The notes under the pieces are model-generated. The model did no database searches. It was not told the DNA's origin and saw only the letters and a program-made list of their open reading frames with translations. The translations under genes and the position numbers were made by a program. Positions 3,044 to 64,000 of a stretch of 64,000 nucleotides of DNA are shown in pieces. The stretch is from Phycisphaerae bacterium (lineage in GTDB: Bacteria; Planctomycetota; Phycisphaerae; Sedimentisphaerales; Anaerobacaceae). The DNA lies in contig JAUXAL010000008.1 in the NCBI GenBank assembly GCA_030619925.1, positions 1,509 to 65,508 on the forward strand. The letters run 5' to 3'. Position 1 is the stretch's first letter. Every line of letters begins with the position of its first letter.

Positions 3044-3235
3044 GAACGCAATAGGCTAACTTATCCGACAAAATTTTGCAAATTGTTTCCCGAAAAACTC
3101 AAAGGAGACAAACGTACAAATTGATCGCGGGAGTTATCCCGAAAAACATTCCATTCAAAACAACATGGACAAGGTCACAACAGCAAAGCTGGGATATAAC
3201 CTACTGTGGTTTGAACCGTGTTTTCGGGCAAGATG

Positions 3236-3607
3236 TTAGCTGAACTCTTTGAGAATCTCTTCGAGACTATCTACCTTTTTGACTAAGGGATGATGGAAAA
3301 ACATTGTTCGGCTTTCCACACCGGTCACGACGCGTATGGGTATCCTAGAGCCAATTGCTATTCCAAGTTCAACATACATTCCGACCCCCCGGTCATGTGG
3401 TAGAATAATGAGCATGTCGGCATCCTCAACACCGCGACTTTCTCTGATTGCAGCCTCTCGAGACGCCTCCGCATTCTTATCGTAAGGTCTAAGATGATCA
3501 ATTGTCGTCCAATCGAAAGTGATTTCATGCCCCGCATCTTTGAGTGCCTTTATCGCTTCTCTGACACTCCCCTCTACACCAACTTTACCAGATACAAAGA
3601 ATTTCAT
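3236..3607 (-). CDS. nucleoside 2-deoxyribosyltransferase-like (NDT/Rcl fold) protein
   Basis: 123-aa ORF. MKFFVSG N-terminus, ADMLIILP strand and GVGMYVELGIAIG motif resemble the D-x-G-x-x-x-E-x-G core of the NDT family. Last gene of a low-GC three-gene cassette. Confidence 0.5.
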   Translation of the reverse strand: MKFFVSGKVGVEGSVREAIKALKDAGHEITFDWTTIDHLRPYDKNAEASREAAIRESRGVEDADMLIILPHDRGVGMYVELGIAIGSRIPIRVVTGVESRTMFFHHPLVKKVDSLEEILKEFS

Positions 3608-5538: not shown

Positions 5539-6948
5539 TCAGTGAAGAAATTTCTTGAAGCCAAATCGAAGCCTGAATCGACAAAGAAAATCTGCTATTC
5601 GCTGCCATACCTGGGCCAGGCTGACTCTCCAGCCAAGTGCTTTTAGCAGTGAATCGTTATCCGCTAATGAACGTGCCTTCTTAATCCTCTCGGCAGCGTT
5701 GGCCAGTCTGCCCATTGCCAGGTAAACAAAGGCCGAATCTCTTAAAGCCAAAACGTGCCCGCTCTGGATGTCAAGCGTGTGGGCAAAAAACTCTGCAGCA
5801 TCCCCAAGCACCCCTTTTATAGCCCTAACAACTCCAAGATAGTAATAGGCATCTGCGTTAACGCGATCGATATCAACAGCCTGCAGCAGGCACTGTGTTG
5901 CATAATCGAGCTCATCCATTCTCAAAAACATCGACCCCATAGAAACCAAAATATTCGCATCTTCAGGTGCCAGCTTCAATTCAGAAATCAGATAAGCTCT
6001 GCCCTTTTGTTCTTGGCCTTTCATTAATGCATACTGGGCCAGTCTATAGCATGGCCCTGCGAGTGTATTGTCCTTTTGCAATGCCTGACTAAATAGTTGC
6101 ACTGCCTGCTCATAGTCATTGTTGCTAAAAGCAATCTCCCCAAGATAGAACAAAGCGACTCCTGATGCCGGCTCAAGTTCGAGTATTCTGTTGAACTTTT
6201 CCTTTGCCGATTCGATCTCGCCGGTCTCAAGCATAAACAAACCGAAATCGAGAATAACATCAACGTCACCCGGGTTAACACGAAGCTCTGCCAGGAAATG
6301 CTCACGACTGTGTTTGTTGTCACCCGCGGACCAGTAGGCTTGAGCAATTCGATAATTGATTTGTGGGTGACTCGGCTCAAGTTCAGCCGTTCTTAGCCAG
6401 CAGCGAATGGCTTTTTTGTACTGGCCCCGAGCAAAAAGACTGTTGCCGATATTATAGTAGCACAACGCACAGTCCGGCTTTATCTGCTGGGCGAGGTAAA
6501 AAATCTGCTCAGCTAAATCGTGTAGGCCCATTTCAGTATAGGCAATTATTCGATTACAGTAGCACGGTTCAAACGCCGGATCTAATTCCTCGATAAGCTC
6601 GAAAGTTTCGATAGCCAGATCATAGTAGCACGTGCGGGTATAATCGACCGCCAGCGAGTTTAATATCTCTAAATCATCAGGGTTTAGCTGCAGGGCGATT
6701 TCGTATTCACTTGTCGCATCGTCAAACTGATTTATGGAATCCAACGTCAGCGCCTTGTTGAAATGCCACGAACTGTTGGAAGGGTTTATCTCAAGGGCCG
6801 TTTCTAATTCGGCAAGAGCTTGTGACATTTTGCCGTCTTCGTAAAGCTCAAAGGCTTTCCGCGCCGACTGTTCACCCTTTTCATAGGAGCCGAATTCCAT
6901 ATCTTCAAAAAGCATAGTCGCACCTTTACCCCGTCTATCACCCAGCAA
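5539..6948 (-). CDS. tetratricopeptide (TPR) repeat protein
   Basis: 469-aa ORF built of repeated 34-aa A/Y/L-rich units (e.g. ALELNPSNSSWHFNKA, ALQLNPDDLEILNSLA, AELEPSHPQINYRIA). Confidence 0.75.
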   Translation of the reverse strand: MLGDRRGKGATMLFEDMEFGSYEKGEQSARKAFELYEDGKMSQALAELETALEINPSNSSWHFNKALTLDSINQFDDATSEYEIALQLNPDDLEILNSLAVDYTRTCYYDLAIETFELIEELDPAFEPCYCNRIIAYTEMGLHDLAEQIFYLAQQIKPDCALCYYNIGNSLFARGQYKKAIRCWLRTAELEPSHPQINYRIAQAYWSAGDNKHSREHFLAELRVNPGDVDVILDFGLFMLETGEIESAKEKFNRILELEPASGVALFYLGEIAFSNNDYEQAVQLFSQALQKDNTLAGPCYRLAQYALMKGQEQKGRAYLISELKLAPEDANILVSMGSMFLRMDELDYATQCLLQAVDIDRVNADAYYYLGVVRAIKGVLGDAAEFFAHTLDIQSGHVLALRDSAFVYLAMGRLANAAERIKKARSLADNDSLLKALGWRVSLAQVWQRIADFLCRFRLRFGFKKFLH

Positions 6949-24243: not shown

Positions 24244-24286
24244 ATGCCAAACGCCCAAAAAAGGTATTTGGGGACCCGTTGATTGT

Positions 24287-25066
24287 ATGGATAAGTTAGT
24301 GATTGCAGAAAGACAGTTCAATTCCCGACTGCTTGTGGGAACAGGCAAGTTTGCATCGTGTGAGATTATGGCTGATGCTATCGAAAAGTCGGGCACCGAG
24401 ATCGTTACTGTTGCGCTTCGCAGAGTGGATATCGAAAACGAAAACGACGATATGCTAAGCGCAATTGACCGCAAAAAATATCTGCTGCTGCCCAACACTT
24501 CCGGTGCTCGCGATGCCGATGAGGCGGTCCGCCTTGCAAAACTGGCGCGGGCGGCAACGGGGATTGAATGGGTGAAACTCGAAGTTACGCCTGACCCGTA
24601 TTATCTGCTGCCGGATCCCGTAGAGACACTAAAGGCAGCCGAGATTCTGATAAAGGATGGCTTCGTTGTTCTGCCTTACATCAATGCGGACCCGATTTTG
24701 GCAAAGAAGCTTGAAGACGCCGGCGCTGCGACGGTGATGCCGCTTGGGAGCCCTATCGGTTCAAATCAGGGACTCAAGACCCGCTCGTCGCTGGAGATTA
24801 TAATCCAGCAGAGCAATGTGCCGGTCGTGGTTGATGCCGGGTTGGGGCTTCCCTCACACGCGGCCGAGGCAATGGAAATAGGCGCAGATGCAGTTCTGGT
24901 TAATACAGCAATTGCAACGGCGGCTGAGCCGACTGAAATGGCAAAAGCATTTAGACTCGCTGTTGAGGCAGGGCGGTTGGCTTATGAATCCGGGTCGGCA
25001 CCTGTCAGTAAAAGAGCAAGTGCTTCCAGTCCGCTGACGGGCTTTTTGAGAGATGAAAATGATTAG
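24287..25066 (+). CDS. thiG: thiazole synthase ThiG
   Basis: [19 protein letters not shown] start, NTSGA and [13 protein letters not shown] motifs. Start set at ATG 24287 within ORF 24149..25066. Confidence 0.9.
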
Positions 25067-26309
25067 CACACGGAAATATCTCGGCCCAGACATAAAAACG
25101 ATACTGGCTGAGAAGGGCCTCGATAGCAATGGCCGGCTCTGGCGCGACCGGCTGGAGAACACAAGTGGCAGGGAGGTTGAAAGAGCTTTGGCTTGCGCCA
25201 CCGGTAGCTATAGTTTGGAGAAGCTGTTGGCGTTTATCTCGCCGGCCGCTGAAGATTACCTTGAAGAGATGGCGCAGTTAGCCCGGCAGCTTACCGTTCA
25301 AAGATTTGGGCGGACAATCAGACTTTATGCCCCGCTGTATTTGTCCAATTTCTGCGTCAACAGCTGCCGATACTGCGGCTTCAATAGAGAAAATAAATTT
25401 AAGCGAACCAGATTGACCATTGAGCAGGCTCTTACCGAAGCTGATATTATCGCAGCCGAAGGTTTTAGAGACATACTGCTTGTCAGTAGTGAAGATAGAA
25501 AAATTGTTAGCATTGAGTATCTTACGGAACTTGCGAAGAAACTGAGAAGCAAATTCAGCTCTATCTCGATAGAAGTATATCAGATGGGCGTCGCTGAATA
25601 TGCAAAGCTCTTTGAGGCAGGTATTAAGGGAGTTACGGTCTATCAGGAAACATATGACCGGGAGGCATATGCATATTATCATCCTGCCGGCCCAAAGTCT
25701 GATTATGATAACAGATTAGACACTCCGGACCGCGTTGCTGCTGCTGGTATGCGCGAGATTGGATTGGGCGTTCTTTTGGGCCTGGTCCCGTTAGAAGTTG
25801 ACGGCTTACTTCTAACGGGACAGGCGGACTGGCGAGTTGAGACCCTGGCCTTAGCCGAACATGCTCACTACCTGGTCAAACGCTATTGGCGGTCGCGCGT
25901 GTCGTTTTCTTTTCCAAGGCTGCGGCCTGCGTACCCCGCCCCTGAAGCAGTGGCGGGGCAGTCCAAGCATCTACTTAGTGATAAGAACCTTGTACAGATG
26001 ATGATGGCACTGCGATTGTGCTTCGCTGATGCGGGACTGGTGCTGTCAACTCGGGAGCGCGCCGAATTGAGAGACCGTCTGATTAAACTTGGGACAACCA
26101 AAATGAGCGCGGGCAGCAAGACCTGTCCGGGCGGATATTCGGAGCAGACAGATGCCCCGCCGAAGGCGGGTATGATCAGACCCTGCGTTGCCGGGAGGCA
26201 ATTTGAAATTGACGATAGTCGCAGCCCGGCTCAAGTGGCCGCTATGATAAGGGCCCAGGGCGCCGAACCGGTTTGGAAAGACTGGGACAGCGCTTTTGAC
26301 GAAGATTAG
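25053..26309 (+). CDS. thiH: 2-iminoacetate synthase ThiH (radical SAM)
   Basis: [10 protein letters not shown] radical-SAM cluster motif, [16 protein letters not shown]-terminus. 418 aa, i.e. longer than remembered ThiH (about 377 aa) because of in-frame insertions. Confidence 0.9.
25787..25819. repeat. 33-nt perfect hairpin element (CCCGTTAGAAG ... CTTCTAACGGG) inside thiH
   Basis: 11-bp perfect stem 25787-25797 / 25809-25819 with an 11-nt loop. It encodes part of [13 protein letters not shown], which interrupts the conserved LGL / DWRV segment. Confidence 0.85.
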
Positions 26310-26404: not shown

Positions 26405-29400
26405 TCATGCCCGCCTTCGGTGGGCGAACTCTTTCATTGCACAATACAGAACCGGCACGACGAGCATCGTAAGTACTTCAATCGTCATTCCTCCAAAGGA
26501 AGGTATTGCCATCGGCACCATAATATCAGAACCCCTTCCGGTCGAGGTAAGCACGGGGATAAGCGCCAGGACCGTTGTGGCGGTTGTCATAAGACAGGGA
26601 CGAATTCTGCGAGTACCAGCCTCAACCACGGCCCGGCGGATCTGAGCAACTCCACGGGGCTTTTGGGCCTGGAACGACTGCCTGAGATACGTACACATCA
26701 CAACGCCATCGTCGGATGCAATCCCGAACAGCGCCAGAAACCCGACCCAGATAGCGACGCTGAGATTAATCGTGTGCACGTCGAACAGCTCCCGCATATT
26801 CACCCCGAACACGCCGAAGTTCAGGAACCACTCCCGGCTGTACAGCCATATCATTAAGAATCCGCCCGACCATGCGACAATTATCCCCGAAAATATCAGC
26901 AGGCTGGTCACGGTGGATTTGAAATGGAAATAGAGAATTATGAATATGATAAAAAGGGCCAAGGGTATAACTACGGAGAGTGTTTTCTGTGCGCGAATCT
27001 GATTTTCATAGCTGCCGGCAAAGACATAACTGGTTCCTCTGAGGTTTAGTCCGGGCAGAGAGTCAATCTTCTGCTCGGTAAGGGTGCGGCCTTGTTTTGC
27101 TGCTGTTTCCGAGGCATCCTCAAAAGCCTTGCTAAATGTTTCGGCTTGATGTTTGAGATACCGCTGACATTCTTCGACGACGTCAACCTCGGCGTGCCCG
27201 GGCTTCATATCAAAGAGTACGTAACCGACAAGAAATGTGTCCTCGCTCTTTATGGCCTGAGGACCACGCACATAGCGAATTTCCGCCAATTGGATAAGTG
27301 GTATCTGGGCCCCATCGGCTGATGGAACTAAAATCTTGCCTAACGTTTCGACCTGGTCCCGCAATTCGCGCACGTATCTGACTCTTACGCCGAATCGCTC
27401 GCGTCCCTCAACGGTTGTAGTAATGCGCCTGCCCCCTATCGCAACCTCAATAACATCCTGAACCTGCCCGATATTCATTCCATACCGCGCTATGGCCTGG
27501 CGGTTTATATCAATCTCCAGGTAGGGCTTGCCTACGATCCGGTCGGCAATTACAGCGGCCGGCTCTACACTGGGAACTTCCTTGAGAAAGCGCTCGATTT
27601 CCAGGCCAACCCGATCGATTGTGTTGAGGTCCGGCCCCTTGATCTTGACGCCCATCGGCGCGCGCATACCGCTCTGGAGCATTACTATTCGCGCGGCGAT
27701 AGGCTGCAGCTTGGGCGCACTGGTGGTGCCGGGAATCTTAGCGGCATTTACTATTTCGTCCCAGATATCATCCGGGTTCTTAATATGTTCTCGCCATTGT
27801 CTAAAGGGTCTGCCGTATTTGTCGCGTATGAGTTCGTTTTGGTCATCGCGGATAAATTCGCCGGCCTTTTTGTCGTATCTAAAGCGAATACGATGCCCGT
27901 CTTTGTCGGTCAGGTACTCCGGCTTGTAATTGATGACAGTTTCAATCATCGATATCGGGGCAGGATCAAGAGGCGACTCGACGCGGCCAATTTTTCCCAC
28001 TACCGAGTCGATCTCGGGGATGGACTGCAGGGCTATGTCCTGCTTTTGCAGGACGTCCAGACATTCTCCAATTGAGGCATGGGGCATAGTTGTCGGCATA
28101 TACAGAAATGAGCCCTCATCCAAAGGCGGCATAAATTCCTTGCCGAGTCCGGGAAAACTGTGCACCGCAGCAAACCACAATCTGTTCGACTTCAACTTCT
28201 CCGGCACAAAGAAAAAGACTCTGCCAAACCCAAGCCACACCATCAAAGCCACAACAACGACTACGCTGGGAATCGATAAGAACGCCGTCTTATGCCTGAG
28301 GCACCAGCCCAAAATGGCCGGATAGAACTTCTGGAAAACCTTGAAAAACGACAGCAGCCCACCAATCAGGAGAACGACAAACACGAGATTTCGCACTAAA
28401 CCTTTATCCGAGCCCAACGGCAGCCAGTGGCTGGCAAGTATTACGCCAACTGTGACCACTGCCGCGGCATTGGCAATCAGGGGCAGGAAACTGTTCACTC
28501 TCTTTGGGATGTAGTCTCTTGAGAGATGATAAAACCCGATTGCGCCGATGAGAACACCTATCCACCAGGTAAGCCGGAAAGCTGCTATAACAGCGACGAC
28601 AATTAATAATCCGCCCAATATGTATCGATTCAGTTTTTTGAGAGCGGCTTTTCTTGTGAACAGGATGTGGGCGGCCGGCGGGATTATGGTTAAAGCGACT
28701 ATTACCGAAGCGATTAAAGCAAAGGTCTTGGTAAATGCCAGCGGCTTGAAGAGCTTGCCTTCCGCCCCGGTCATCGTGAAAACCGGCAAAAAGCTGACGA
28801 TGGTAGTCGAGACGGCCGTTAGGACTGCACCGCCGACCTCGCTGGTCGCCTTGAAAACGACCTCGAGCTTGTTATCGTCCGGTGCTGCTTCGTCGAGGTG
28901 CTTTAGGATATTTTCACAAATGATTATGCCCATATCGACCATTGTGCCGATGGCAATCGCAATGCCCGACAGCGCCACGATATTTGCATCGACGCCGAAG
29001 GTCTTCATTGCGATAAAGCACATCAGCACGGCCAAAGGGAGCAGGCCGCTGATGAGTACCGAGCTTCTGAGATGCACCACCAAAACGATAACCACGATGA
29101 TTGTAACGAGAATTTCCTCGGTCAGAGCTGTGTTCAATGTGCCTAAAGTTTCGTAAATAAGGCCTGTGCGATCATAGAAGGGGACGATTGTCACCTGGGA
29201 AACCGTGCCGTCGGGCAGGGTTTTTTTGTCAAGTCCCGGCGATATCTCTTCGATCTTCTTTTTTACATTTTGGATGGCTTCAAGGGGATTATAGCCGTAG
29301 CGTACAACCACCACACCGCCGACGGCCTCGGCTCCACCCTTGTCCAGCGCGCCTCGCCGCAGTGCAGGCCCGTATGACACCTTCGCTATATCTTTAATGT

Positions 29401-46883: not shown

Positions 46884-47675
46884 ATGCACAAGGCAAGAGG
46901 GTTTACCTTGATAGAGCTTCTGGTGGTAATCGCCATCATTGCGTTATTGATGGCGATATTGATGCCGGCACTGCAGCGGGTCAAGCAACAAGCGAGGACG
47001 GCTGCTTGTCAATCGAAGCTGCACCAATGGAGCCTTGCCTTTTCGATGTATGCGACTCAGAACGATGGGCGTATGTTCGCAGCTTATCACGGCGGCGGCA
47101 CTACGGACAGCGACGTCTGGGGCAACGCCCTTCGGCCGTACTACAAGGAACCTGATCTGCGCCTGTGCCCAACGGCCATGAAGGCTTACGATGAGGGTGG
47201 CTCGGTCACATTTGGAGCCTATCGCAGGTCTCGCTTGCAACATCATAATGATCACGGTCTCGGAAGCTATGGGCTAAGTACCTGGGCCGGTAATGCTCCG
47301 CTGGGAATGGAGGCACATTACCAATATGAGACTAAATATCAGTGGAGGCGTTTCGATGTTAGGGATGCAGGTTACATACCGCTGTTGATGGATGCCCAGT
47401 GGGTCGATGGCTGGGCAATGGCCGTCGATGAACCGCCGGAATATAGTGGTGAGCCGTGGCAGGCCCGCGGCGGTCACACCGGTGGTCTCAGGCGTTTCTG
47501 CGTCAACCGACACAACGGCTTCACAAACGGTCTTTTTATGGATTTCTCTGTCAGGAAGATTGGACTTAAGGAGTTGTGGGAGCTTAAGTGGCATCGAAAT
47601 TGGACCGAAGAGAGAGCCAACGCCGGCACGCCCGTATGGCCGGATTGGATGAGGAATTTTAAAGACTACGACTGA
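46884..47675 (+). CDS. prepilin-leader protein, DUF1559/H-X9-DG-like family (paralog 1 of 8)
   Basis: [30 protein letters not shown] (prepilin cleavage/methylation motif). C-terminal NRH-x9-DF and GLKELWELKWH motifs. Confidence 0.85.
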   Translation: MHKARGFTLIELLVVIAIIALLMAILMPALQRVKQQARTAACQSKLHQWSLAFSMYATQNDGRMFAAYHGGGTTDSDVWGNALRPYYKEPDLRLCPTAMKAYDEGGSVTFGAYRRSRLQHHNDHGLGSYGLSTWAGNAPLGMEAHYQYETKYQWRRFDVRDAGYIPLLMDAQWVDGWAMAVDEPPEYSGEPWQARGGHTGGLRRFCVNRHNGFTNGLFMDFSVRKIGLKELWELKWHRNWTEERANAGTPVWPDWMRNFKDYD

Positions 47676-47900
47676 AAATGATTATTAGAAAAAAGCGGGC
47701 AAAAGAGTCCTGATTTTGTCATACTTATAAAACAGGATTATCAAAAGTAAAGTAGTTCTGAAAGGAAAGCAGGAAGGAGTGGAAACACTCTGGGAATATC
47801 CGGGAAAATGTTGGTCCAAGTCCCCTAGCAATCCCCACCCGGAGGGTCTGGCTAGGCCTGCTTTCCTTCTCCTACGAGGAGATATGCAAGGAACACTATC

Positions 47901-48746
47901 ATGGGTAAACCAAGAGGTTTTACATTAATTGAGCTTTTGGTGGTAATCGCCATAATTGCGCTGTTGATGGCGATATTGATGCCGGCGCTCCAGCGGGTAA
48001 AGCATCAGGCAAGGACAGTCGCCTGTCAGGCCTTGCTGAAACAATGGGGCGTTATCTGGTCGATGTATTGCGATGATAACGATGGCAATTTCAGCAGAGG
48101 TCTTGTTGGCGGCTCTGGATGGCATCGTGGAGAATGGATAATTTGCCTGCGGTCTCTGTACCAGACAAAGACAGATATTCTCCGGTGCCCGTCGGCCACT
48201 AAACGGCACCCTAATGGAAACCAGTGGGGCAGCACGTTCTACACCTACTATATGCCGTTGGGCGGAAGCGGCAGCATAGGAGGCGGTGAAGAACCCAGCT
48301 ACGGGGGAAACAACTGGATTTATGACCCGGCGGCGGGCACAAGCGCGATTCAGGGCCGACCGGCTGCATGGAACTGGAGGACCAAAAACGTCAAAGGTGC
48401 GGCCCTCGCACCGGTCTTCGCAGATGCCATGTGGAGAGGAGGCGGGCCTTGCTATCGTACTAATGAGAGTGGTCCACTCGACCCTAAATTCAACCGCATC
48501 ATTCCGCCCGAATACGACGGTCAATGGATCAACTACTCCAACGAAATGATGCACTTCGCCATCGACCGACACAACGCGTTTGTAAACCACCTTTTCATGG
48601 ATTGGTCCGTCAGAAGAGTTGGTATTAAGGAGTTGTGGAAGCTCAAGTGGCATCGCCGGTTCAGCGTAAACGGCCCTTGGACCAAAGTCGGTGGTGTCCA
48701 GCCCAGCGATTGGCCTCATTGGATGAGAAAGTTTAAAGAGCACTAA
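47901..48746 (+). CDS. prepilin-leader protein, DUF1559/H-X9-DG-like family (paralog 2)
   Basis: [33 protein letters not shown]-x9-DW, GIKELWKLKWH. Confidence 0.85.
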   Translation: MGKPRGFTLIELLVVIAIIALLMAILMPALQRVKHQARTVACQALLKQWGVIWSMYCDDNDGNFSRGLVGGSGWHRGEWIICLRSLYQTKTDILRCPSATKRHPNGNQWGSTFYTYYMPLGGSGSIGGGEEPSYGGNNWIYDPAAGTSAIQGRPAAWNWRTKNVKGAALAPVFADAMWRGGGPCYRTNESGPLDPKFNRIIPPEYDGQWINYSNEMMHFAIDRHNAFVNHLFMDWSVRRVGIKELWKLKWHRRFSVNGPWTKVGGVQPSDWPHWMRKFKEH

Positions 48747-48877
48747 GAAAATCACCGCTGCACAAAAGAGCGCAACTGCCAAAAAGTTGATAGAAAACAC
48801 CCTATGGCAAGGCTGCGATTCACCGGCTTTAGGGCGGGAGAACCATATTTTGATACTTCGCATTAACAAGTTTAATA

Positions 48878-48906
48878 TTGCAAAAAAAACAGATTCAAGG
48901 TATAAT
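48878..48906 (+). promoter_or_regulatory. sigma70-like promoter upstream of paralog 3
   Basis: TTGCAA - 17 nt - TATAAT, 30 nt upstream of ATG 48936. Confidence 0.55.
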
Positions 48907-48935
48907 ACCTCCCAGCAAGGGGAAAGGGTGCTGGT

Positions 48936-49904
48936 ATGAACAAATCAAGGGGTTTTACCCCGTTAGAAATCAGTCGAACTTGTCTGACGACAGTCAAGAT
49001 TCGGAAGGTATCAGAGCTTCGAGCGGGATTTCTAACGGGCCCCGTTAGAGACCCGAAGGACAAAGGTTCTAACGGGGCGGGGTTTACATTAATAGAGCTT
49101 TTGGTGGTAATTGCTATTATTGCATTACTGATGGCGATCTTGATGCCCTCACTGCAGCGCGTAAAGAAACAGGCAAAGGCAGTTGTTTGCCGGTCGAACT
49201 TGAAGCAATGGGGTGTCGTCTTTGCGATGTATACCGGCGACAACGACGGCTCTTTCCCCAGTGGTGATGTTGATAACGCCCCCATTAAGGATCCGACGGG
49301 GCTGTGGATGTATGCGCTACGGCCGTACTACAGTGACGGACAGCTACGCCTCTGCCCAATGGCCACGAAACCTTGGACGAAGGGAGCCCGGCAGCCGTTT
49401 GCAGCCTGGGGGCCTATCTCCTCCTATGAGCCCGGCTACTGGCCTACTGAGCCCGACACTCCAGCGGCTAATTACCTCAGCTATGGGCTGAATGACTGGG
49501 TTCGCAATACTCCACAGAAGTCTTCTCGCGGACTGGGTGGTATAGATAGACTTCCCTTGCTCTGGAGGACTCCCAATGTTAAAGGTGCAGGTAATATACC
49601 GGTGCTTTTGGACAGCTCCTTTTTCGGGTCCGATCCATACCACACCGATCAACCTCCGGAATATGATGGTAATGTGGTGGTGGAATTCAATCAAAATGAA
49701 ATGAAGCGTTTCTGCCTCAACCGACACCAAAATGGGACGACAAACGGCGTTTTTGTGGATTGGTCTGTCAGAGAGATTGGGCTTAAGGAGTTGTGGAAGC
49801 TCAAGTGGCATCGAGAGTTCGACATATCCGGCCCCTGGACCCAAGCCGGTGGCGTCCGGCCGAGCGATTGGCCCGAATGGATGAAAAGGTTTAAAGACTA
49901 CTGA
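48936..49904 (+). CDS. prepilin-leader protein (paralog 3) with a 43-codon insertion in the leader
   Basis: MNKSRGFT[PLE...SNGAGFT]LIELLVV, NRH-x10-DW, GLKELWKLKWH. Near-identical to paralog 6 over most of its length. Confidence 0.8.
   Translation: MNKSRGFTPLEISRTCLTTVKIRKVSELRAGFLTGPVRDPKDKGSNGAGFTLIELLVVIAIIALLMAILMPSLQRVKKQAKAVVCRSNLKQWGVVFAMYTGDNDGSFPSGDVDNAPIKDPTGLWMYALRPYYSDGQLRLCPMATKPWTKGARQPFAAWGPISSYEPGYWPTEPDTPAANYLSYGLNDWVRNTPQKSSRGLGGIDRLPLLWRTPNVKGAGNIPVLLDSSFFGSDPYHTDQPPEYDGNVVVEFNQNEMKRFCLNRHQNGTTNGVFVDWSVREIGLKELWKLKWHREFDISGPWTQAGGVRPSDWPEWMKRFKDY
48959..49077. mobile_element. two adjacent hairpin (MITE-like) elements with CCGTTAGA(A) terminal inverted repeats, in frame in the leader of paralog 3
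   Basis: Unit A has a 13-bp perfect stem, cccgttagaaatc (48959-48971) / gatttctaacggg (49027-49039). Unit B has a 10-bp perfect stem, ccccgttaga (49040-49049) / tctaacgggg (49068-49077). Confidence 0.7.
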
Positions 49905-50009
49905 AAATAACCGTCCCGCAAAAACGAACAAAAAAATACGATTTTGCCGAACTTATACAACAAAATTGCGAAAAGGAAAGCGGCGAAAAGACACCGAAGG
50001 AGTATTGGA

Positions 50010-50933
50010 ATGGATAAACGAAAAGGGTTTACCCCGTTAGAAAGAAATCGGATTCGGAAGGTACCAGAGCTTCGAGGGCGAGTTCTCCGCAGTCCACAGG
50101 ATGGCCAAGCCCAGATGGCCAAGCCCATAACGGGGTTTACCTTAATAGAACTTTTGGTTGTAATCGCCATTATTGCGTTACTGATGGCGATCTTGATGCC
50201 CGCACTACAGCGGGTAAAGAAACAGGCACGAGGGGTCGCTTGCCAGATGAACCTCAAACAGTGGGGCATTATCTGGGCAATGTATTGTGGCGATAACGAC
50301 GGCTACTGGCTTAGCGGCGAAGGCCGTGGCAGCGGCAGATGGTGGTTCCAGCCGATGAGTGAGCTCTACACTGTTGAGGCAAAGATACGGGTCTGTCCCC
50401 AGGCCGCTAAACCTTCCGGTCGCGGGAAAATAGGTGCGTGGGCGGATCATGCTTGGATAGTCACAGACCCAGGCATTGAATATATAGGCAGCTACGGCCC
50501 GAATGGGTGGATGTGCAACCATCGGCCGGGAGCGTCAACAGTATGGAGCCGCCCGACTAAGGATAGTCAAGGCAGGCTGATGCATTGGAAGACCCCCAAT
50601 GTTCAGGGTGCGGACAATATACCGTTATTTACCGGTAGTTGGTGGGTTGATGCCTGGCCAAGGGACAATGACCAACCTCCTGATATTACAGCCACCTACG
50701 CGGCGATCCCGGATAGGCCTAATACAAATGAAATGGAGCGCAATTGCGTCAACCGGCACGGTGGATTCTTAAACGGCCTTTTTTGCGATTGGTCCGCCAG
50801 AAAAATTGGACTTAAGGAGCTCTGGACATTAAAGTGGCATAGAACTTACGACATAAACGGCCCCTGGACCAAAGCCGGCAATGCCCAGCCAAGCGACTGG
50901 CCGATGTGGATGAGAAGCTTTAAGGATTACTAA
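50010..50933 (+). CDS. prepilin-leader protein (paralog 4) with a 36-codon insertion in the leader
   Basis: AAGGAG RBS then MDKRKGFT[PLERN...KPITGFT]LIELLVV, NRH-x9-DW. An alternative internal start, [14 protein letters not shown], is possible. Confidence 0.8.
50034..50132. mobile_element. 99-nt insertion flanked by the 9-bp direct repeat GGGTTTACC, with termini CCGTTAG / ATAACGG
   Basis: GGGTTTACC at 50025-50033 and 50133-50141. The interior shares gattcggaaggtaYcagagcttcgag with the element in paralog 3. Confidence 0.7.
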
Positions 50934-50977
50934 TAACGCTTCCAACGCAACGAAGGGATACGAAACGAATATCATTT

Positions 50978-51796
50978 ATGAACAAACAAAAAGGGTTCAC
51001 CTTAATAGAACTTTTGGTGGTAATCGCTATCATTGCGCTGTTGATGGCCATATTGATGCCGGCGCTGCAGCGTGTCAAGAAACAGGCAAAAGCCGTTGTT
51101 TGCCAGTCAAACCTCAAGCAATGGGGCACTATCTTTGCCATGTACACCAACGACAACAACGGCTTCTTTTCCAGACGCACGCAGTCGGGCGGTCGTTGGA
51201 TAAATGTCCTGTACGACTACTACTATCGGGAGGAGAAGATACGCGTCTGCCCGATGGCGACAAAAATTAAGGTCCCGTACCCGCCCGGGTCCACTAGCAC
51301 ACTTGTAGTAGGTGGCGACAAATTTACGTCATGGGGCAAGATCGGTATGACGCCAAACGAAAGTTGGGGGCCAGTCGGTACCTACGGCAGCTACGGGATA
51401 AATGGCTACCTTTATGTGCCAGGGAGCGACCCATTGTACGGAAAGCCGGCTGATTATTACTGGAGAACTCCTAATGTCAAGGGTGGATATAATATACCGA
51501 TGTTTCTGGACGGCTGGTTCTTTTGCGGCTGGCCAGAGCATACCAATACCCCCCCGAACTACGATGGAGACAGATGGGCAAGTGACGCAAATGCAATGAA
51601 CCGTTTCTGCATCAACCGTCACGACGGATTCATAAACGGCCTTTTTTGCGATTGGTCCGCCAGAAAAATTGGACTTAAGGAGCTCTGGACATTAAAGTGG
51701 CATAGAACTTACGACATAAACGGTCCCTGGACCAAAGCCGGCAATGCCCAGCCAAGCGACTGGCCGATGTGGATGAGAAGCTTTAAGGATTACTGA
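50978..51796 (+). CDS. prepilin-leader protein (paralog 5)
   Basis: [33 protein letters not shown]-x9-DW. The last 162 nt are virtually identical to paralog 4. Confidence 0.85.
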   Translation: MNKQKGFTLIELLVVIAIIALLMAILMPALQRVKKQAKAVVCQSNLKQWGTIFAMYTNDNNGFFSRRTQSGGRWINVLYDYYYREEKIRVCPMATKIKVPYPPGSTSTLVVGGDKFTSWGKIGMTPNESWGPVGTYGSYGINGYLYVPGSDPLYGKPADYYWRTPNVKGGYNIPMFLDGWFFCGWPEHTNTPPNYDGDRWASDANAMNRFCINRHDGFINGLFCDWSARKIGLKELWTLKWHRTYDINGPWTKAGNAQPSDWPMWMRSFKDY

Positions 51797-51840
51797 TAAC
51801 GTTTCCAAAGCGGCGAGGAGATACAGAGCGAATGTCATTT

Positions 51841-52698
51841 ATGAACAAACTAAAAGGGTTTACCCGCCATACGCGTGGCGGGTTTACCTTAATAGAACTT
51901 TTGGTGGTAATCGCTATCATTGCGCTATTGATGGCGATACTAATGCCCGCACTGCAGCGGGTGAAGAAGCAGGCACAAGCAGTTAAGTGTCAGGCACACC
52001 TTAAACAATGGGGTGTCGTCTTTGCGATGTATACCGGCGACAACGACGGCTCTTTCCCCAGTGGTGATAACACCGCTCCTAATGATCCGACGGGAATGTG
52101 GATGTATGTGCTACGGCCGTACTACAGTGACGGACAGCTACGCCTCTGCCCAATGGCCACGAAACCTTCGAATAAGGGAGCCCGGCAGCCGTTTGCAGCG
52201 TGGGGGCCCATCTCCTCCTATGAGCCCGGCTACTGGCCTACTGAGCCCGACACTCCAGCGGCTAATTACCTCAGCTATGGGCTGAATGACTGGGTTCGCA
52301 ATGATCCACGGACGTCTTCTCGTGGACTGGGTGGTATAGATAGACTTCCCTTGCTCTGGAGGACTCCCAATGTTAAAGGTGCAGGTAATATACCGGTGCT
52401 TTTGGACAGCTCCTTTTTCGGGTCCGATCCATACCACACTGATCAACCTCCGGAATATGATGGTAATGTGGTGGTGGAATTCAATCAAAATGAAATGAAG
52501 CGTTTCTGCCTCAACCGACACCAAAATGGGACGACAAACGGCGTTTTTGCGGATTGGTCTGTCAGAGAGATTGGGCTTAAGGAGTTGTGGAAGCTCAAGT
52601 GGCATCGAGAGTTCGACATATCCGGCCCCTGGACCCAAGCCGGCGGCGTCCAACCGGGCGACTGGCCGCTATGGATGAGAAACTTTAAGGATTACTAA
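51841..52698 (+). CDS. prepilin-leader protein (paralog 6) with an 8-codon leader insertion
   Basis: MNKLKGFT[RHTRGGFT]LIELLVV. Start set at the ATGAAC conserved with paralogs 5 and 7. Confidence 0.85.
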   Translation: MNKLKGFTRHTRGGFTLIELLVVIAIIALLMAILMPALQRVKKQAQAVKCQAHLKQWGVVFAMYTGDNDGSFPSGDNTAPNDPTGMWMYVLRPYYSDGQLRLCPMATKPSNKGARQPFAAWGPISSYEPGYWPTEPDTPAANYLSYGLNDWVRNDPRTSSRGLGGIDRLPLLWRTPNVKGAGNIPVLLDSSFFGSDPYHTDQPPEYDGNVVVEFNQNEMKRFCLNRHQNGTTNGVFADWSVREIGLKELWKLKWHREFDISGPWTQAGGVQPGDWPLWMRNFKDY

Positions 52699-52742
52699 TA
52701 ACGCTTCCAAAGCAACGAAGAGATACGGAACAAATATCATTT

Positions 52743-53525
52743 ATGAACAAACAAAAAGGGTTTACCTTGATTGAACTTTTGGTGGTAATTGCTATCATTG
52801 CGCTGTTGATGGCGATATTAATGCCGGTACTGCAGCGGGTGAAGAAGCAGGCACAGGCAGTTAGGTGTCGGGCACACCTTAAACAATGGGGGGTCGTTTT
52901 TGCGATGTACACCGGCGACAACGACAACAAATTCATGCACTGGAATGCAGGCGTATGGGTGGAACCGCTCAGGCCCTATTATAAAGACGTTGGTGAGGCA
53001 ATGCGTGTCTGTCCGACAGCTACAAGGAGTCTTGAGGAAGGAGCTCTTCATACGTTTGCCGCGTGGGACAGGGTAAATACGTACACCAAGGATGAGAGGG
53101 TTTATCGCGGCAGCCTTGGTATCAACAACTGGGTTTATAACCGGCCGCCGGGCGCAGACACCTCAGCTCTTATGTGGGGCAATCCCTCTGCCAATAACTG
53201 GACGGTTACCGAGATTAAAGGCGCCAACAATGTACCGCTGTTTCAAGATTGCTGGCGCTGGGGCGGTGCTCCATATGACACACGGGATAGCGCTTCTCCA
53301 AGCGGCTGGAATGAGCCTCCCCCGTATGAAGACATTTTCACGAATGGTTTTGGGCGTTTCTGTCTGAACCGGCACAATGGGACAATTAATGGCTGTTTTG
53401 TGGATTTCACTGTCAGAGCAATAGGGCTAAAGGAAATGTGGAGGCTTAAGTGGCATAGAGTATTCGATATACATGCTGAGTCGCCGGTTTGGCCGGAATG
53501 GATGAACAATTTCAGGGATTACTGA
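52743..53525 (+). CDS. prepilin-leader protein (paralog 7)
   Basis: [33 protein letters not shown]-x9-DF, GLKEMWRLKWH. Confidence 0.85.
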   Translation: MNKQKGFTLIELLVVIAIIALLMAILMPVLQRVKKQAQAVRCRAHLKQWGVVFAMYTGDNDNKFMHWNAGVWVEPLRPYYKDVGEAMRVCPTATRSLEEGALHTFAAWDRVNTYTKDERVYRGSLGINNWVYNRPPGADTSALMWGNPSANNWTVTEIKGANNVPLFQDCWRWGGAPYDTRDSASPSGWNEPPPYEDIFTNGFGRFCLNRHNGTINGCFVDFTVRAIGLKEMWRLKWHRVFDIHAESPVWPEWMNNFRDY

Positions 53526-53624
53526 GAAACAACCCTTGCACAAAAACCCACAAAAGATTATACTGGACTTGCAAGACAAAACTGCAAAAAGTAAACCAGC
53601 GAAGAATACAGAAGGAGTATCATT

Positions 53625-54437
53625 ATGGGCAAACAAAAGGCTTTTACCCTGATAGAACTTCTGGTGGTAATTGCCATTATCGCTATATTGATGGCGATAT
53701 TGATGCCCGCACTGAATAAAGCCAGAGAACAGGGCAAACGTGCGGCCTGCCTGAGCAATCTAAAGCAGCTGACACTTTCATGGATTATGTATGCAGATGA
53801 AAACGACGACAAAATTGTTAGCGGCGACGGAGGTGTTTGGCACACATATAATGGGGTCGTTGAGACCCCCTGGGTCGGCAGGTGTTGGCACAGTAATTAC
53901 AGAGGCGGCGACCAGCTACCGGTGGAAGAGCAAAAACTTGAAATCAAAAAAGGAGCTCTATGGTCGTATTGTAAGAACCTGCAGCTCTACCGCTGCCCGA
54001 CCGGTACGCGAGGAGAGCTGGTAACCTATGCTGCAATGGATTCTATGAATGGTCATCCTCTGCCGAATAATCCCAAGGGCAGAGGTGCAGACGCCGTCAT
54101 AAAGAGATTGCTCATTAAGAAACGGCTCACGATTCGCAGCCCGGATCAGAGGATAGTTTTTATTGATGAAGGCTGGGTAACACCGGACAGTTACGCTGTT
54201 TATCAAAATAGACAAGAATGGTGGGACGACCCTATGGTGCGGCACGGTAACGGGACGAGCGTTTCTCTTGCAGATGGTCACAGCGAATACTGGAAGTGGA
54301 AAGGCCCCGAGACGATAAAGGGCGGCAAGCTGCGCGACCGCACTCACCCTTCCCAGCATGTTGTGCCTCAAAGCGAGCCGGGCCACGAGGATTTGTACAG
54401 AGTCAGGAAGTCCTGTTGGTGGGAGATAGAGGGTTAG
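53625..54437 (+). CDS. prepilin-leader protein with canonical H-X9-DG motif (paralog 8, divergent subfamily)
   Basis: [40 protein letters not shown]-terminal [19 protein letters not shown] (H-x9-DG). Confidence 0.85.
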
Positions 54438-61689: not shown

Positions 61690-63075
61690 TCACGCCCTTA
61701 GTTTAACACCGGCCGAAACATCCTGCTCCCAGGTGGCCAGCTCATCTTCAAGTGCCTTGACTCTCTCCGGCTCGGCCTCGGCAAGATTCTTCTTTTCAGC
61801 GAGGTCATCATCGAGGTTATAGAGTCTTATATCTTTGCCCTGAACCAGCAGTTTCCATGGCCCTTTGCGGACGGCCCTTTCTTTTCTGTAGCGCCAGAAC
61901 AGCGTCCGCTTCGGCACTTTTCGGCCCTCTACCAGCATCGGTAGAAGGTCGATACCATCGAGCTTCAGGCCCGCCGGCAGTTTTGCCCCGGCGATTGATA
62001 CCATCGTAGCAAACAAGTCCATCCCTAAAGCCGTCTGGCCCGTAACCGTCCCGGGTTTTATTCTCCCCGGCCAATAGGCAACAGCCGGGACGCGGTGCCC
62101 GCCTTCCCATAAGCTGCCTTTGTAGCCGGATAGTGCACCGTTGGAGCCGTTCTTGGTAGCGCCGTTGTCGGAACAGAAAAAGATAAATGTCTTGCGTTCC
62201 AGCCCTAAGCGCTTGACCGTCTCGACAATTCGTCCGATACCCTCATCCATCACCTCGACCATTTCCTTATACGCCCGGGTAATCTCCTTGCCTTTGGCTT
62301 TTTTGCCCTTCCTGCCGCCACCCAGACGCTCCGGCGGGTCGTCCCGGCCCTGGTAAGGATAGTGCGGCGCCTCATGCGGCAGATACAGACAAAATGGTTC
62401 GTCCTTGTGCCGCTCTATAAAATCTATCCCGTGCCTGGTTATCAAATCAGTGCAGTAACCTTCTTCGGGGACCTTCTCGCAATCCTTCCACCAGTCTTCG
62501 AAGCCGGCCCCGTCGATATGCGAGTGATAATCAACATTGCCACTGACATAACCGATAAACTCGTCGAACCCCTGCCTGGCTGGATTGAACTGGACGTTGT
62601 AGCCTAAGTGCCACTTGCCGAAAATGCCCGTCGCGTAACCGTGTTTTCTGAGCACCTCGGCAAAGGTTATTTCTTCCAGCGCAATTCCGGTTTGTCGAGT
62701 CGGCCCTTTTGCATAGATGACGCCCTCGATGCCGCTGCGCTGCTGGTAGCGTCCCGTCAGCAGCGCCGCCCGTGTCGGACTGCACACCGGACAGTTGGAA
62801 TGATAATCCGTAAACTTCATTCCCCCTTTCACCAAGGCATCGATATTGGGCGTCTGTATCTTTTTGCTGCCATAGCAGCCAACGTCCCCGTACCCTAAAT
62901 CATCCGCCATAATCAGGATTATGTTGGGCCGTTCTGCCGCCGTCTTCGAGAAACCACCCACTTTGCCTGTTGAGCAGCCGTAGTTCGGCATCGCCATCGC
63001 TGCTGTTCCCCCAATCGCGAACTTAATAAATTCCCGTCGATTCACCCCGTTAAAAATCCTCGCTTTTTGTCTCAT
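61690..63075 (-). CDS. arylsulfatase-family (formylglycine-dependent) sulfatase with Tat-type signal
   Basis: MRQKARIFNGVNRREFIKF leader after an AAGGAG RBS, PNIILIMADDLGYGD and CSPTRAALLTG motifs. Start moved to ATG 63075, since the upstream ORF part is repeat element. Confidence 0.85.
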   Translation of the reverse strand: MRQKARIFNGVNRREFIKFAIGGTAAMAMPNYGCSTGKVGGFSKTAAERPNIILIMADDLGYGDVGCYGSKKIQTPNIDALVKGGMKFTDYHSNCPVCSPTRAALLTGRYQQRSGIEGVIYAKGPTRQTGIALEEITFAEVLRKHGYATGIFGKWHLGYNVQFNPARQGFDEFIGYVSGNVDYHSHIDGAGFEDWWKDCEKVPEEGYCTDLITRHGIDFIERHKDEPFCLYLPHEAPHYPYQGRDDPPERLGGGRKGKKAKGKEITRAYKEMVEVMDEGIGRIVETVKRLGLERKTFIFFCSDNGATKNGSNGALSGYKGSLWEGGHRVPAVAYWPGRIKPGTVTGQTALGMDLFATMVSIAGAKLPAGLKLDGIDLLPMLVEGRKVPKRTLFWRYRKERAVRKGPWKLLVQGKDIRLYNLDDDLAEKKNLAEAEPERVKALEDELATWEQDVSAGVKLRA

Positions 63076-63090
63076 ATTCTTACTCCTTTT

Positions 63091-63146
63091 GAAATCTTGA
63101 CTCTTGACTGTCGTCAGACAAGTGTCGTCAGACAAGTTTCTAACGG
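63091..63146 (-). repeat. partial copy of the CCGTTAGAA hairpin-element family in the sulfatase 5' leader
   Basis: The minus strand reads ccgttagaaa-cttgtctgacgaca-cttgtctgacgacagtcaag-agtcaagatttc. The 20-mer cttgtctgacgacagtcaag is identical to 48979-48998. Confidence 0.75.
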
Positions 63147-63152
63147 CGTTCA

Positions 63153-64000
63153 TCACGGCGTAGCCAGATACAAACGTTTATTCGCCGCGGCGGTTCTTTT
63201 GACGTCCATCTTTATCATTGCTCTGTCATACGTCATCAGGCCGTTTACCTCAATTTCCACATCGGTCGTCTGCGTATATACTCCGGCACACAGGCCACCG
63301 CCAATCAGCGAACGCAAATTATCGAGCAGAACTAAGTACGCATCGGTAAGTTCCTCACTGGTTTTATAACTGCGGTATCCCCAGTTCTTTTCGTCCTGCC
63401 AGGTGTGGCCTTTGACCGGCAGGCCGAGACCGCCGAACTCACCGAGCACCGCAGCGCGTTTTTCTTCCGTTGGTGGCGCAGCCGGGCCGGGGTACTTGTG
63501 AATATCGTGCACGTCACCGACCCTGCGGTCGGCCCAGCCGCTGGCCTGGTTCACCAGACGCGTTGGGTCGCGCTTCTTGACCAAATCGGCGATCCGCGCT
63601 GTGTCGTATTGTCCCCAGCCTTCGTTAAAGGGCACCCACATCACGATACAGGGATGGTTGCCGAAAGCATCGATGAGGCGCTTTAACTCCAGTTCAAACT
63701 GCCCGGCTGACTCATCGCTGCGCTTGATGTCGGGACCCTTGCGACCAACATGCCGGTCGCCGTTGGGCATATCCTGCCAGACCATCAATCCCAGCTTGTC
63801 GCACCAGTAGTACAGCCGTGCAGGTTCTACTTTGACGTGCTTGCGCAGCATATTACAGCCCAACCGCTTCAATACCTCGATGTCATAGCGCAGCGCTTTA
63901 TCTGTCGGTGCAGTGTACAGCCCGTCAGGCCACCAGCCCTGGTCGAGTGGGCCGAAGTGAAACAGTGATTTATTGTTCAGAAAAATCCGCGTAACACCGC
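63153..64000 (-). CDS. glycoside hydrolase family 2 (C-terminal part; gene continues beyond the window)
   Basis: The frame stays open to position 64000 (hand-translated GVTRIFLNNKSLFHFGPLDQGWWPDGLYTAPTDKALRYDIEVLKRLGCNMLRKH). WVPFNEGWG contains the GH2 acid/base NE motif. Confidence 0.75.
   Translation of the reverse strand, partial: GVTRIFLNNKSLFHFGPLDQGWWPDGLYTAPTDKALRYDIEVLKRLGCNMLRKHVKVEPARLYYWCDKLGLMVWQDMPNGDRHVGRKGPDIKRSDESAGQFELELKRLIDAFGNHPCIVMWVPFNEGWGQYDTARIADLVKKRDPTRLVNQASGWADRRVGDVHDIHKYPGPAAPPTEEKRAAVLGEFGGLGLPVKGHTWQDEKNWGYRSYKTSEELTDAYLVLLDNLRSLIGGGLCAGVYTQTTDVEIEVNGLMTYDRAMIKMDVKRTAAANKRLYLATP

Follow-up and report, generated by a model that had tools for sequence, protein, structure and literature searches.

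The thiH gene in this stretch of DNA from a Phycisphaerae bacterium (64,000 nucleotides, referred to as the window) contains an in-frame hairpin that is very probably one copy of a non-autonomous transposable element of very small size, similar to MITEs (miniature transposable elements with inverted repeats), and that would be translated as a disordered loop. The ends of the element are the inverted repeats [C/T]CCCGTTAGAA...TTCTAACGGG[G/A], between which the interior varies and can be almost absent. A non-autonomous transposon is the best explanation because the evidence combines inverted ends and a target-site duplication (TSD) of fixed length with nesting, an empty allele and the recurrence of identical copies at several loci. 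An initial annotation of the window had already interpreted the hairpin as one member of an inserted family, and this interpretation is supported. Two findings were named there as speaking against it, namely conservation of the inserted segment in the ThiH proteins of distant taxa and the lack of a bias towards multiples of three (3n) among copies within genes; the insert is not conserved in other ThiH proteins, and copies deep within open frames of other genomes do show a 3n bias.

The hairpin insertion in thiH

The hairpin is a perfect palindrome, GTCCCGTTAGAAGT-TGACGGCTT-ACTTCTAACGGGAC (25785-25821), with a stem of 14 bp and a loop of 9 nt; it had been recognized in the initial annotation, where the stem and the loop were each given as 11. 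The inserted material consists of [T]CCCGTTAGAA...TTCTAACGGG[A] and a second, imperfect copy of the target (CTGG/CAGG), which together make up the 39 additional nucleotides (25786-25824) that are read as the 13 residues V245-Q257 (codons 25785-25823). The filled site is laid out as GGGC-CTGG-T[core]A-CAGG-CGGAC, the duplicate departing from the target at one base; this single T-to-A change makes the flanks complementary, and with it the stem reaches 19 bp, interrupted by one bulge. The pattern CCGTTAGAA-N(5-35)-TTCTAACGG has a single match in the window and none in 100 dinucleotide shuffles, and a version of the end pattern with a wider gap occurs at two window sites (none expected). When the region 25775-25833 is folded, single-stranded DNA reaches -18.6 kcal/mol (z = -7.2) and RNA reaches -30.9 kcal/mol (z = -5.4), and none of 200 shuffles is as stable in either case.

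Alignment with ThiH homologues reveals that the 13 residues are a lineage-specific insertion, as had been proposed. The segment is confined to the window protein both in a first alignment of 26 sequences and in a later one of 120, in which 118 homologues could be scored at the insertion site. The spacing from G...GL to (D/N)WR is exactly one residue in 117 of these 118, and a spacing of 14 residues is found only in the window protein and its database twin P0001, which has the identical sequence; the conserved segment is thus split by the insert, as the initial annotation had stated. The insert is missing even from relatives that are 92-95% identical in the alignment. In the DNA of two relatives (L001 and L002, with aligned proteins 92-94% identical), the empty site GGGCCTGGCGGAC is present as GGGC-CTGG-CGGAC, where the 4-mer target occurs once. 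Additionally, the ThiH of Thermosinus (Protein Data Bank (PDB) entry 7pd1) reads GALLGL-NDWRQE, with a gap at the hairpin site, and is gapped at both of the 13-residue inserts of the window ThiH. The insertion into thiH is recent and postdates the divergence from the relatives that are 92-95% identical in the alignment.

The identical 33-mer core (CCCGTTAGAAGTTGACGGCTTACTTCTAACGGG) is found at two further loci, in two metagenome contigs, each with a different perfect TSD (CGAG and TCAG). At the first (L138), the perfect CGAG duplicate (CGGG-type) accompanies an insertion that again measures 39 nt and keeps the frame, close to the start of an open reading frame (ORF) of 376 aa; at the second (L139), the copy is flanked by TCAG and nested inside another family member.

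The host gene is thiH, as identified by the CxxxCxxC motif, the BATS domain, the neighboring thiG and the similarity to 7pd1. Pfam assigns Radical_SAM and BATS to the 418-aa product, the radical-SAM (S-adenosylmethionine) cysteines C101, C105 and C108 are invariant across the alignment, and a PDB search with the window protein retrieves the solved structure 7pd1 with E = 5e-89. The homologues found by protein search number thousands, with a usual length of 387-388 aa; the closest are named ThiH and come from metagenome-assembled genomes (MAGs) named as Planctomycetota, Phycisphaerales and Sedimentisphaerales.

An AlphaFold2 model of the protein built from 26 sequences is weak, with a predicted local distance difference test score (pLDDT) of 67, and the model from 120 sequences was used, which has a mean pLDDT of 80, a predicted template modeling (TM) score of 0.85 and a target-normalised TM score of 0.91 to 7pd1. 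Segments with pLDDT below 50 are the termini (1-7 and 411-418) and three internal stretches, 245-256 (the hairpin element), 294-305 and 366-383, all three of which are sites of lineage-specific insertions or deletions. In the model the insert lies after strand 235-239 and before helix 260-277. In all likelihood the element passes into both transcript and protein, where it would form a disordered loop of 13 residues in the radical-SAM barrel; tolerance of this loop by ThiH is plausible, not assured.

Other variable sites are present in the same gene. A second 39-nt element, CCGCCGAAGGCGGGTATGATCAGACCCTGCGTTGCCGGG, unrelated to the hairpin, lies in frame near the C-terminus (26157-26195, 13 codons, residues ~368-381) and has a partial match at 26410-26423 of the window. 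Its sibling CCGCCGAAGGCGGGCATGATCAGGCCCAGCGGTGCTGGG, which is not in the window, is found in relatives such as L002/P0005 (L002 ~6200-6240), where it follows YYHPAG at a different position of thiH. A third variable site (~25926-25960, residues 294-305) holds a small GC hairpin with an open frame, CCCCGCC...GGCGGGG, and in close relatives it holds different repeats, SRLQTSDHLSLGSC or KKLKTQNSKLKT. From the variable sites seen across relatives, at least four in-frame insertion or deletion hot spots, all of low pLDDT, can be counted in the ThiH of this clade.

Copies of the family in the window and in other genomes

The window contains five family copies in 64 kb, which add 39, 87, 42, 108 and 108 nt; all five are 3n in length, lie inside ORFs and are open in the host frame. 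The four copies outside thiH are bounded by the ends CCCGTTAGAA / TTCTAACGGG, and their recognition in the initial annotation holds with refined limits (Table 1). The copy at 63 kb exists, although the extent first given to it (63091-63146) covers only a part, and it lies in frame in a sulfatase gene and not in an untranslated region.

Table 1. Positions of thiH, its neighbor thiG and the family copies in the window
Feature	Position	Strand	Details
thiG	24284-25066		immediately 5' of thiH; Pfam ThiG match
thiH (2-iminoacetate synthase, radical SAM tyrosine lyase)	25053-26309	+	418 aa; host of the hairpin
Left 4-bp target copy CTGG	25782-25785	+	from the empty site of two relatives
Stem arms GTCCCGTTAGAAGT / ACTTCTAACGGGAC	25785-25798 / 25808-25821		loop 25799-25807
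Element proper in thiH	25786-25820		outer T...A around the 33-nt core CCCGTTAGAAGTTGACGGCTTACTTCTAACGGG (25787-25819)
Right target copy CAGG	25821-25824	+	imperfect (vs CTGG); from DNA alignment with L001 and L002
Two nested copies, leader of prepilin-type gene (48936-49904)	48954-49086	+	add 87 + 42 nt
Copy a	core 48959-49039		outer C 48958, G 49082; TSD TTTA 48954-57 / 49083-86
Copy b	core 49041-49076		outer C 49040, G 49077; TSD CGGG 49036-39 / 49078-81
Copy in leader of second prepilin-type gene (50010-50933)	50028-50139	+	adds 108 nt
Parts of this copy	core 50033-50134		right end degenerate, CATAACGGG; outer C 50032, G 50135; TSD TTTA 50028-31 / 50136-39
Copy after codon 2 of sulfatase gene (61690-63153)	63041-63152	-	adds 108 nt; Pfam Sulfatase
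Parts of this copy	core 63046-63147		ends CCCGTTAAAA / GCCGTTAGAA; TSD TTCA (plus strand) 63041-44 / 63149-52

The target of copy b is the CGGG at the end of copy a, and this 4-mer is perfectly duplicated (...AA-CGGG-C[b]G-CGGG-G-TTTA-C). The leader of this first prepilin-type product reads GFT-PLE..., and its N_methyl motif is shifted to residues 48-70 (Pfam); in the second product the motif is at residues 42-63 (Pfam), and an ATG inside the copy is a possible alternative start. The target of the insertions in the prepilin genes is G-TTTA-C of the GFT codons, and two prepilin genes of another Phycisphaerae MAG (L076) are hit at the same place. The sulfatase copy places 36 codons between MN and RREFIKF, the twin-arginine translocation motif, and carries its own AGGAG-N8-ATG.

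The two prepilin-type genes belong to a tandem array of approximately eight paralogs (46884-54437) with nearly identical prepilin-type N-termini, two of which carry a CCCGTTAGAA element in the leader. The element in the PLE frame recreates G-FTPLE, a mimic of the cleavage and methylation motif G-FTLIE with Glu at +5. A different hairpin of 18 nt, CCGCCATACGCGTGGCGG, is found at 51856-51890 in the same G-TTTA-C target of a paralogous prepilin-type gene, where it adds 24 nt and has GTTTAC on both sides.

Species-representative genomes were scanned for CCCGTTAGAA-N(2-62)-TTCTAACGGG, and the copy counts that follow rest on the matches listed. At least 119 loci in reference genomes have the same ends, and the end pattern is present in 16 stretches of viral contigs. 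With phyla assigned by the MAG labels as given, the matches listed comprise about 47 loci in Patescibacteria, that is, the candidate phyla radiation (CPR), about 30 in Planctomycetota, 11 or so of Desulfobacterota type, about 10 in Omnitrophota, about 5 in Nitrospirota / Thermodesulfovibrionia and 3 in Gammaproteobacteria, with one locus each in WOR-3, KSB1, NPL-UPA2 and Aenigmatarchaeota (the last with three copies on its contig). The core is 22-81 nt long in the genome-scan copies and 22-102 nt when the window copies are included, a length that leaves no capacity to encode a transposase, and most interiors are unrelated to one another. Many loci are multi-copy, with several copies per 8-kb locus in other MAGs, and nested copies occur.

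The flanks of the copies follow the pattern R-[Y-N-N-R]-Y-core-R-[Y-N-N-R]-Y, which corresponds to the symmetric target consensus R-YNNR-Y, and the -1 and +1 positions pair in 94% of 126 listed copies. A perfect 4-mer duplicate, which appears in a single register only, flanks 72 of 144 listed copies; when partners are shuffled, the count averages 7.6 and never exceeds 18. The flank duplication is thus a 4-bp TSD at a symmetric target; duplications of 6 bp or 2 bp were considered and rejected, the 4-bp register giving the best fit. The commonest 4-mers are TTTA, TTCA, TGAA, TTGA and TAAA, and TTAA is absent among the perfect TSDs. The outermost pair of the element is C/G in 84 listed copies and T/A in 44.

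The reading frame is preserved in copies that lie within genes. Twenty-six of the 126 listed genome-scan copies are deep in long open frames (at least 150 nt open on both sides); 25 of them are 3n and stop-free in the host frame. When host ORFs were tested, 16 of 17 proved to encode conserved proteins, among them SMC, SecA, DnaE, ArsA, IF-2, GatB, UvrC, PrmC, a GT2 glycosyltransferase, HolB, RsmH, a sugar dehydratase, an AIR-synthase-like protein, ProB and FolD. Domains flank the insert on both sides except in one host, which has a weak, below-cutoff match to DUF3616 on one side only. Deletion of the non-3n copies restores only junk frames of non-genic appearance, and no live gene interrupted by an out-of-frame copy is seen among the listed copies. 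Survival inside genes is favored by the sequence of the ends. In a 3n core, a TAG in the left arm and a TAA in the right arm fall in one frame, and the sequence leaves two of the three frames open on either strand; these read PLE...LTG and PVR...SNG and are used 6 and 23 times, respectively.

A different relation to the frame is observed at start codons. The ATG of an ORF of at least 100 codons begins exactly at the element edge in 20 of the 144 listed copies, and offsets of 1-12 are represented by 0-3 copies each. These start-adjacent copies are mostly of the T...A type at A-TGAA-Y, a target that rebuilds the downstream ATG, and they lack a 3n bias (5:7:8). The claim that the family always preserves the frame thus holds for the five window copies and for 25 of the 26 deep copies, but not for those next to a start codon. 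Frame preservation is a survivorship effect limited to copies within coding sequence, and the contrast of 3n-only internal copies with unconstrained start-adjacent ones is a clean signature of selection. At the 20 loci concerned (L003, L006, L013, L038, L054, L067, L077 and others, from CPR and other MAGs), the element lies exactly between the original and the regenerated start, for example ATGAAT-[element]-ATGAAT. The genes begin directly behind the hairpin with no obvious Shine-Dalgarno sequence, and some interiors have TATAAT-like boxes.

Additional observations concern particular subsets of loci. In a subfamily of eight (L025, L044, L045, L068, L070, L086, L099 and L105; different CPR MAGs), a GC-rich interior with two or three hairpins is conserved over ~63-69 nt. 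DnaE, GatB and a glycosyltransferase each carry a member in frame. Compensatory changes are limited to the two pairs beside the ends, and no Rfam match is obtained. Three short copies within 1 kb, all between ORFs, are found on the contig labelled Candidatus Aenigmatarchaeota (DPANN), for which mis-binning is possible (L100:2533-2559, 3114-3142 and 3347-3373). A Parcubacteria MAG contains a group I intron at L068:3154-3454 (57.8 bits, gathering score 50) that is unrelated to the element.

The family of very short hairpin elements is apparently undescribed in Rfam and the searchable literature, and a description outside that corpus is possible. At the gathering score, Rfam matches no element in 16 loci and elsewhere detects only tRNA, rRNA and the one group I intron. 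The long window copies yield no BLAST match to plasmids or phages, and two internal motifs are not found in viral contigs. A full-text literature search for the motif returns unrelated primer and oligonucleotide matches only, and the literature on MITEs in these phyla or on in-frame palindromes returns only cases from Rickettsia, Coxiella and mitochondria. Hammerhead, twister and pistol ribozymes were rejected by eye, because a conserved core is lacking and the interiors show no relation to one another. Integron attC sites, whose R' and R'' boxes are resembled by GTTAGAA/TTCTAAC, were also rejected: the box order is opposite and the flanks are direct repeats.

Mechanism and rival explanations

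In the proposed mechanism, a transposase encoded elsewhere would make a 4-bp staggered cut, and entry at GGGC-CTGG-CGGAC would have added the 39 nt to thiH. The gene stays open because 39 is a multiple of three and the arms are read as PLE...LTG in the host frame. Selection would remove frame-breaking copies from coding sequence, and the survivors would be in-frame copies in tolerant loops or cleavable leaders, start-regenerating copies at A-TGAA-Y targets and intergenic copies.

Several points weigh against this explanation. An autonomous element or a transposase with these ends is found neither in ~1.1 Mb of locus DNA nor in the window. The search covered long-range pairs of ends, lone ends beside ORFs and generic CCC...GGG inverted repeats with a TSD, with Pfam applied to the candidate and 10 window ORFs; it yielded ordinary genes only, ordinary genes also adjoin the lone ends, and an apparent 1.7-kb pair of ends in L076 is in fact two separate insertions in prepilin leaders. 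A DDE transposase would have to form a synapse on elements of 22-40 nt, which is a very small size for this. Only 50% of the TSDs are perfect, that of thiH is itself imperfect (CTGG/CAGG), and the outermost pair is T/A in the thiH copy and C/G in both copies with the identical core. The hairpin site also lies inside GVLLGL-AD, which we take to be a SAM-binding motif of the GxIxGxxE type, and the insertion may not be harmless to ThiH; translation of the insert and enzyme activity in its presence are inferred.

The main rival explanation is that the hairpin is a single-stranded element moved by an HUH (Y1) transposase, as are the repetitive extragenic palindromic sequences (REPs) and REPINs mobilized by RAYT or the palindromes derived from IS200/IS605, and not an element with terminal inverted repeats (TIRs) cut by a DDE enzyme. 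Many copies, with cores of 22-40 nt, indeed consist of a perfect hairpin and little else, the positions beside the conserved ends co-vary such that pairing is kept, interiors are unrelated between copies, and no DDE partner is found in the locus DNA or the window. However, HUH elements make no target duplication and insert beside a fixed tetra- or pentanucleotide, whereas variable 4-bp duplications flank 72 of the 144 listed copies and the target is present once in the empty site of thiH. A conserved GTAG-like 5' motif is lacking, and copies are common inside genes, unlike REPs. Movement by an HUH enzyme is consequently considered unlikely.

Two further explanations concern the 13 residues themselves. 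The hairpins might remain untranslated through excision from the RNA, bypass by the ribosome (as in T4 gene 60 or the mitochondrial 'byps') or precise excision of the DNA in expressing cells. Direct repeats around a stable hairpin have the geometry of a bypass element, and the 20 copies between an original and a regenerated ATG are unconstrained in frame. Under such removal, however, a 3n length and an open frame would be needless, yet 25 of the 26 listed deep copies are 3n and stop-free; no live gene is seen interrupted by a non-3n copy, no Rfam ribozyme is matched, and the interior is too variable for a catalytic core, all of which makes this explanation very improbable. It is scarcely conceivable that the segment is an ordinary lineage-specific loop of ThiH or an assembly artefact with a coincidental palindrome. 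The allele is indeed present in one assembly only, P0001 being the same sequence, but a perfect 14-bp palindrome with the exact family ends arises in 0 of 100 shuffles, the identical 33-mer recurs in two independent metagenome contigs, and the family extends across many projects and assemblers with TSDs and a frame bias that are foreign to artefacts.

A broader proposal goes beyond the non-autonomous transposon in thiH and is put forward only tentatively, as it is more probably wrong than right. The CCCGTTAGAA hairpins would form a pan-phylum superfamily of ultra-short transposons whose ends have evolved for life within genes, through stops that share one frame, rebuilding of the ATG and seamless excision of the piggyBac type, and which would provide small-genome uncultivated lineages with a reversible, genome-wide source of loops and leader peptides. 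This proposal takes in MAGs labelled CPR, Omnitrophota, Planctomycetota, Desulfobacterota and Nitrospirota, one labelled as a DPANN archaeon, and viral contigs.

Significance and comparison with known systems

Selfish DNA carried in frame within proteins has mostly been regarded as peculiar to Rickettsia, and the same outcome is now encountered in a free-living planctomycete. Through the common 10-nt ends, it extends to essential genes (SecA, DnaE, IF-2, SMC and GatB) of many uncultivated phyla. If the transposon explanation is true, the ends and a 4-bp TSD provide a simple rule for spotting such insertions, which would account for unusual loops of low complexity and for signal or prepilin leaders of excessive length in the proteomes of MAGs. 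Annotators would be warned that PLE...LTG and PVR...SNG segments are mobile DNA, and the insertions would constitute a natural experiment on insertion-tolerant loops of proteins. The signature of selection is open to testing by metaproteomics.

The closest parallel is provided by the Rickettsia palindromic elements (RPEs; Ogata et al. 2000, 2002, as presented in PMC10969869). In that account, RPEs resemble the hairpin family in being palindromic, non-autonomous and located in frame in unrelated housekeeping genes as well as outside genes, and their translation adds peptide segments that are considered compatible with the protein fold, to which the hairpin inserts may be likened. As presented there, RPEs are ~100-150 bp long, conserved throughout, characterized by a family-specific peptide and confined to Rickettsia, whereas in the hairpin family only the 10-11-nt ends are conserved, the cores are 22-102 nt, the 4-bp TSD is clear and the hosts bear the labels of many phyla. 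By analogy, the hairpin element appears to work like an RPE but is not one, having other hosts and a length below that of any RPE.

Bacterial MITEs (Correia, ERIC, Nezha and the Coxiella QMITEs; PMC10969869, PMC5896051, PMC2229807) have in common with the family TIRs, a TSD, many copies, the lack of coding capacity and nesting, and likewise form occasional in-frame fusions and supply promoters or start codons to neighboring genes. The family displays the characters of a MITE, namely TIRs, a TSD of fixed length, dispersed copies with presence/absence polymorphism and no transposase of its own. It differs from the usual MITEs in that it is far shorter, its interior is effectively free and its ends are the same across phyla. 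To our knowledge, no parent insertion sequence (IS) is known for it.

The IS1380 superfamily has a 4-bp TSD and ends of the CCC...GGG type, and the piggyBac end, CCCTAGAAAG, is resembled by the hairpin family end CCCGTTAGAAA. The 4-bp T..A-type TSD and CCC...GGG ends of piggyBac (PMC10813416) are comparable to the TNNA/YNNR TSD and the [C/T]CCCG...CGGG[G/A] ends of the family, and some piggyBac variants use TAAA, TCAA or CTAA targets (PMC10813416). The hairpin family differs in its preference for TTTA, TTCA, TGAA and TTGA, with no TTAA among the perfect TSDs, and in that no DDD transposase is found in the locus DNA or the window. Because no transposase is found, the resemblance to piggyBac and IS1380 is only a lead.

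The coding palindromes of Nematomorpha mitochondria (PMC6649704) are organellar hairpins tolerated within protein-coding genes, and their embedding and tolerance correspond to those of the family. The REP/REPIN sequences of RAYT systems are, like the family, short, abundant and hairpin-forming; REPs are extragenic, with a conserved 5' motif of the GTAG type and no TSD, whereas the family has a TSD, lacks a GTAG-type motif and includes many intragenic copies. The byps of Magnusiomyces mitochondria are hairpins in coding genes that are skipped by the ribosome and have no need of a frame. Unlike in the byps, the frame is conserved in the hairpin family, which argues for translation.

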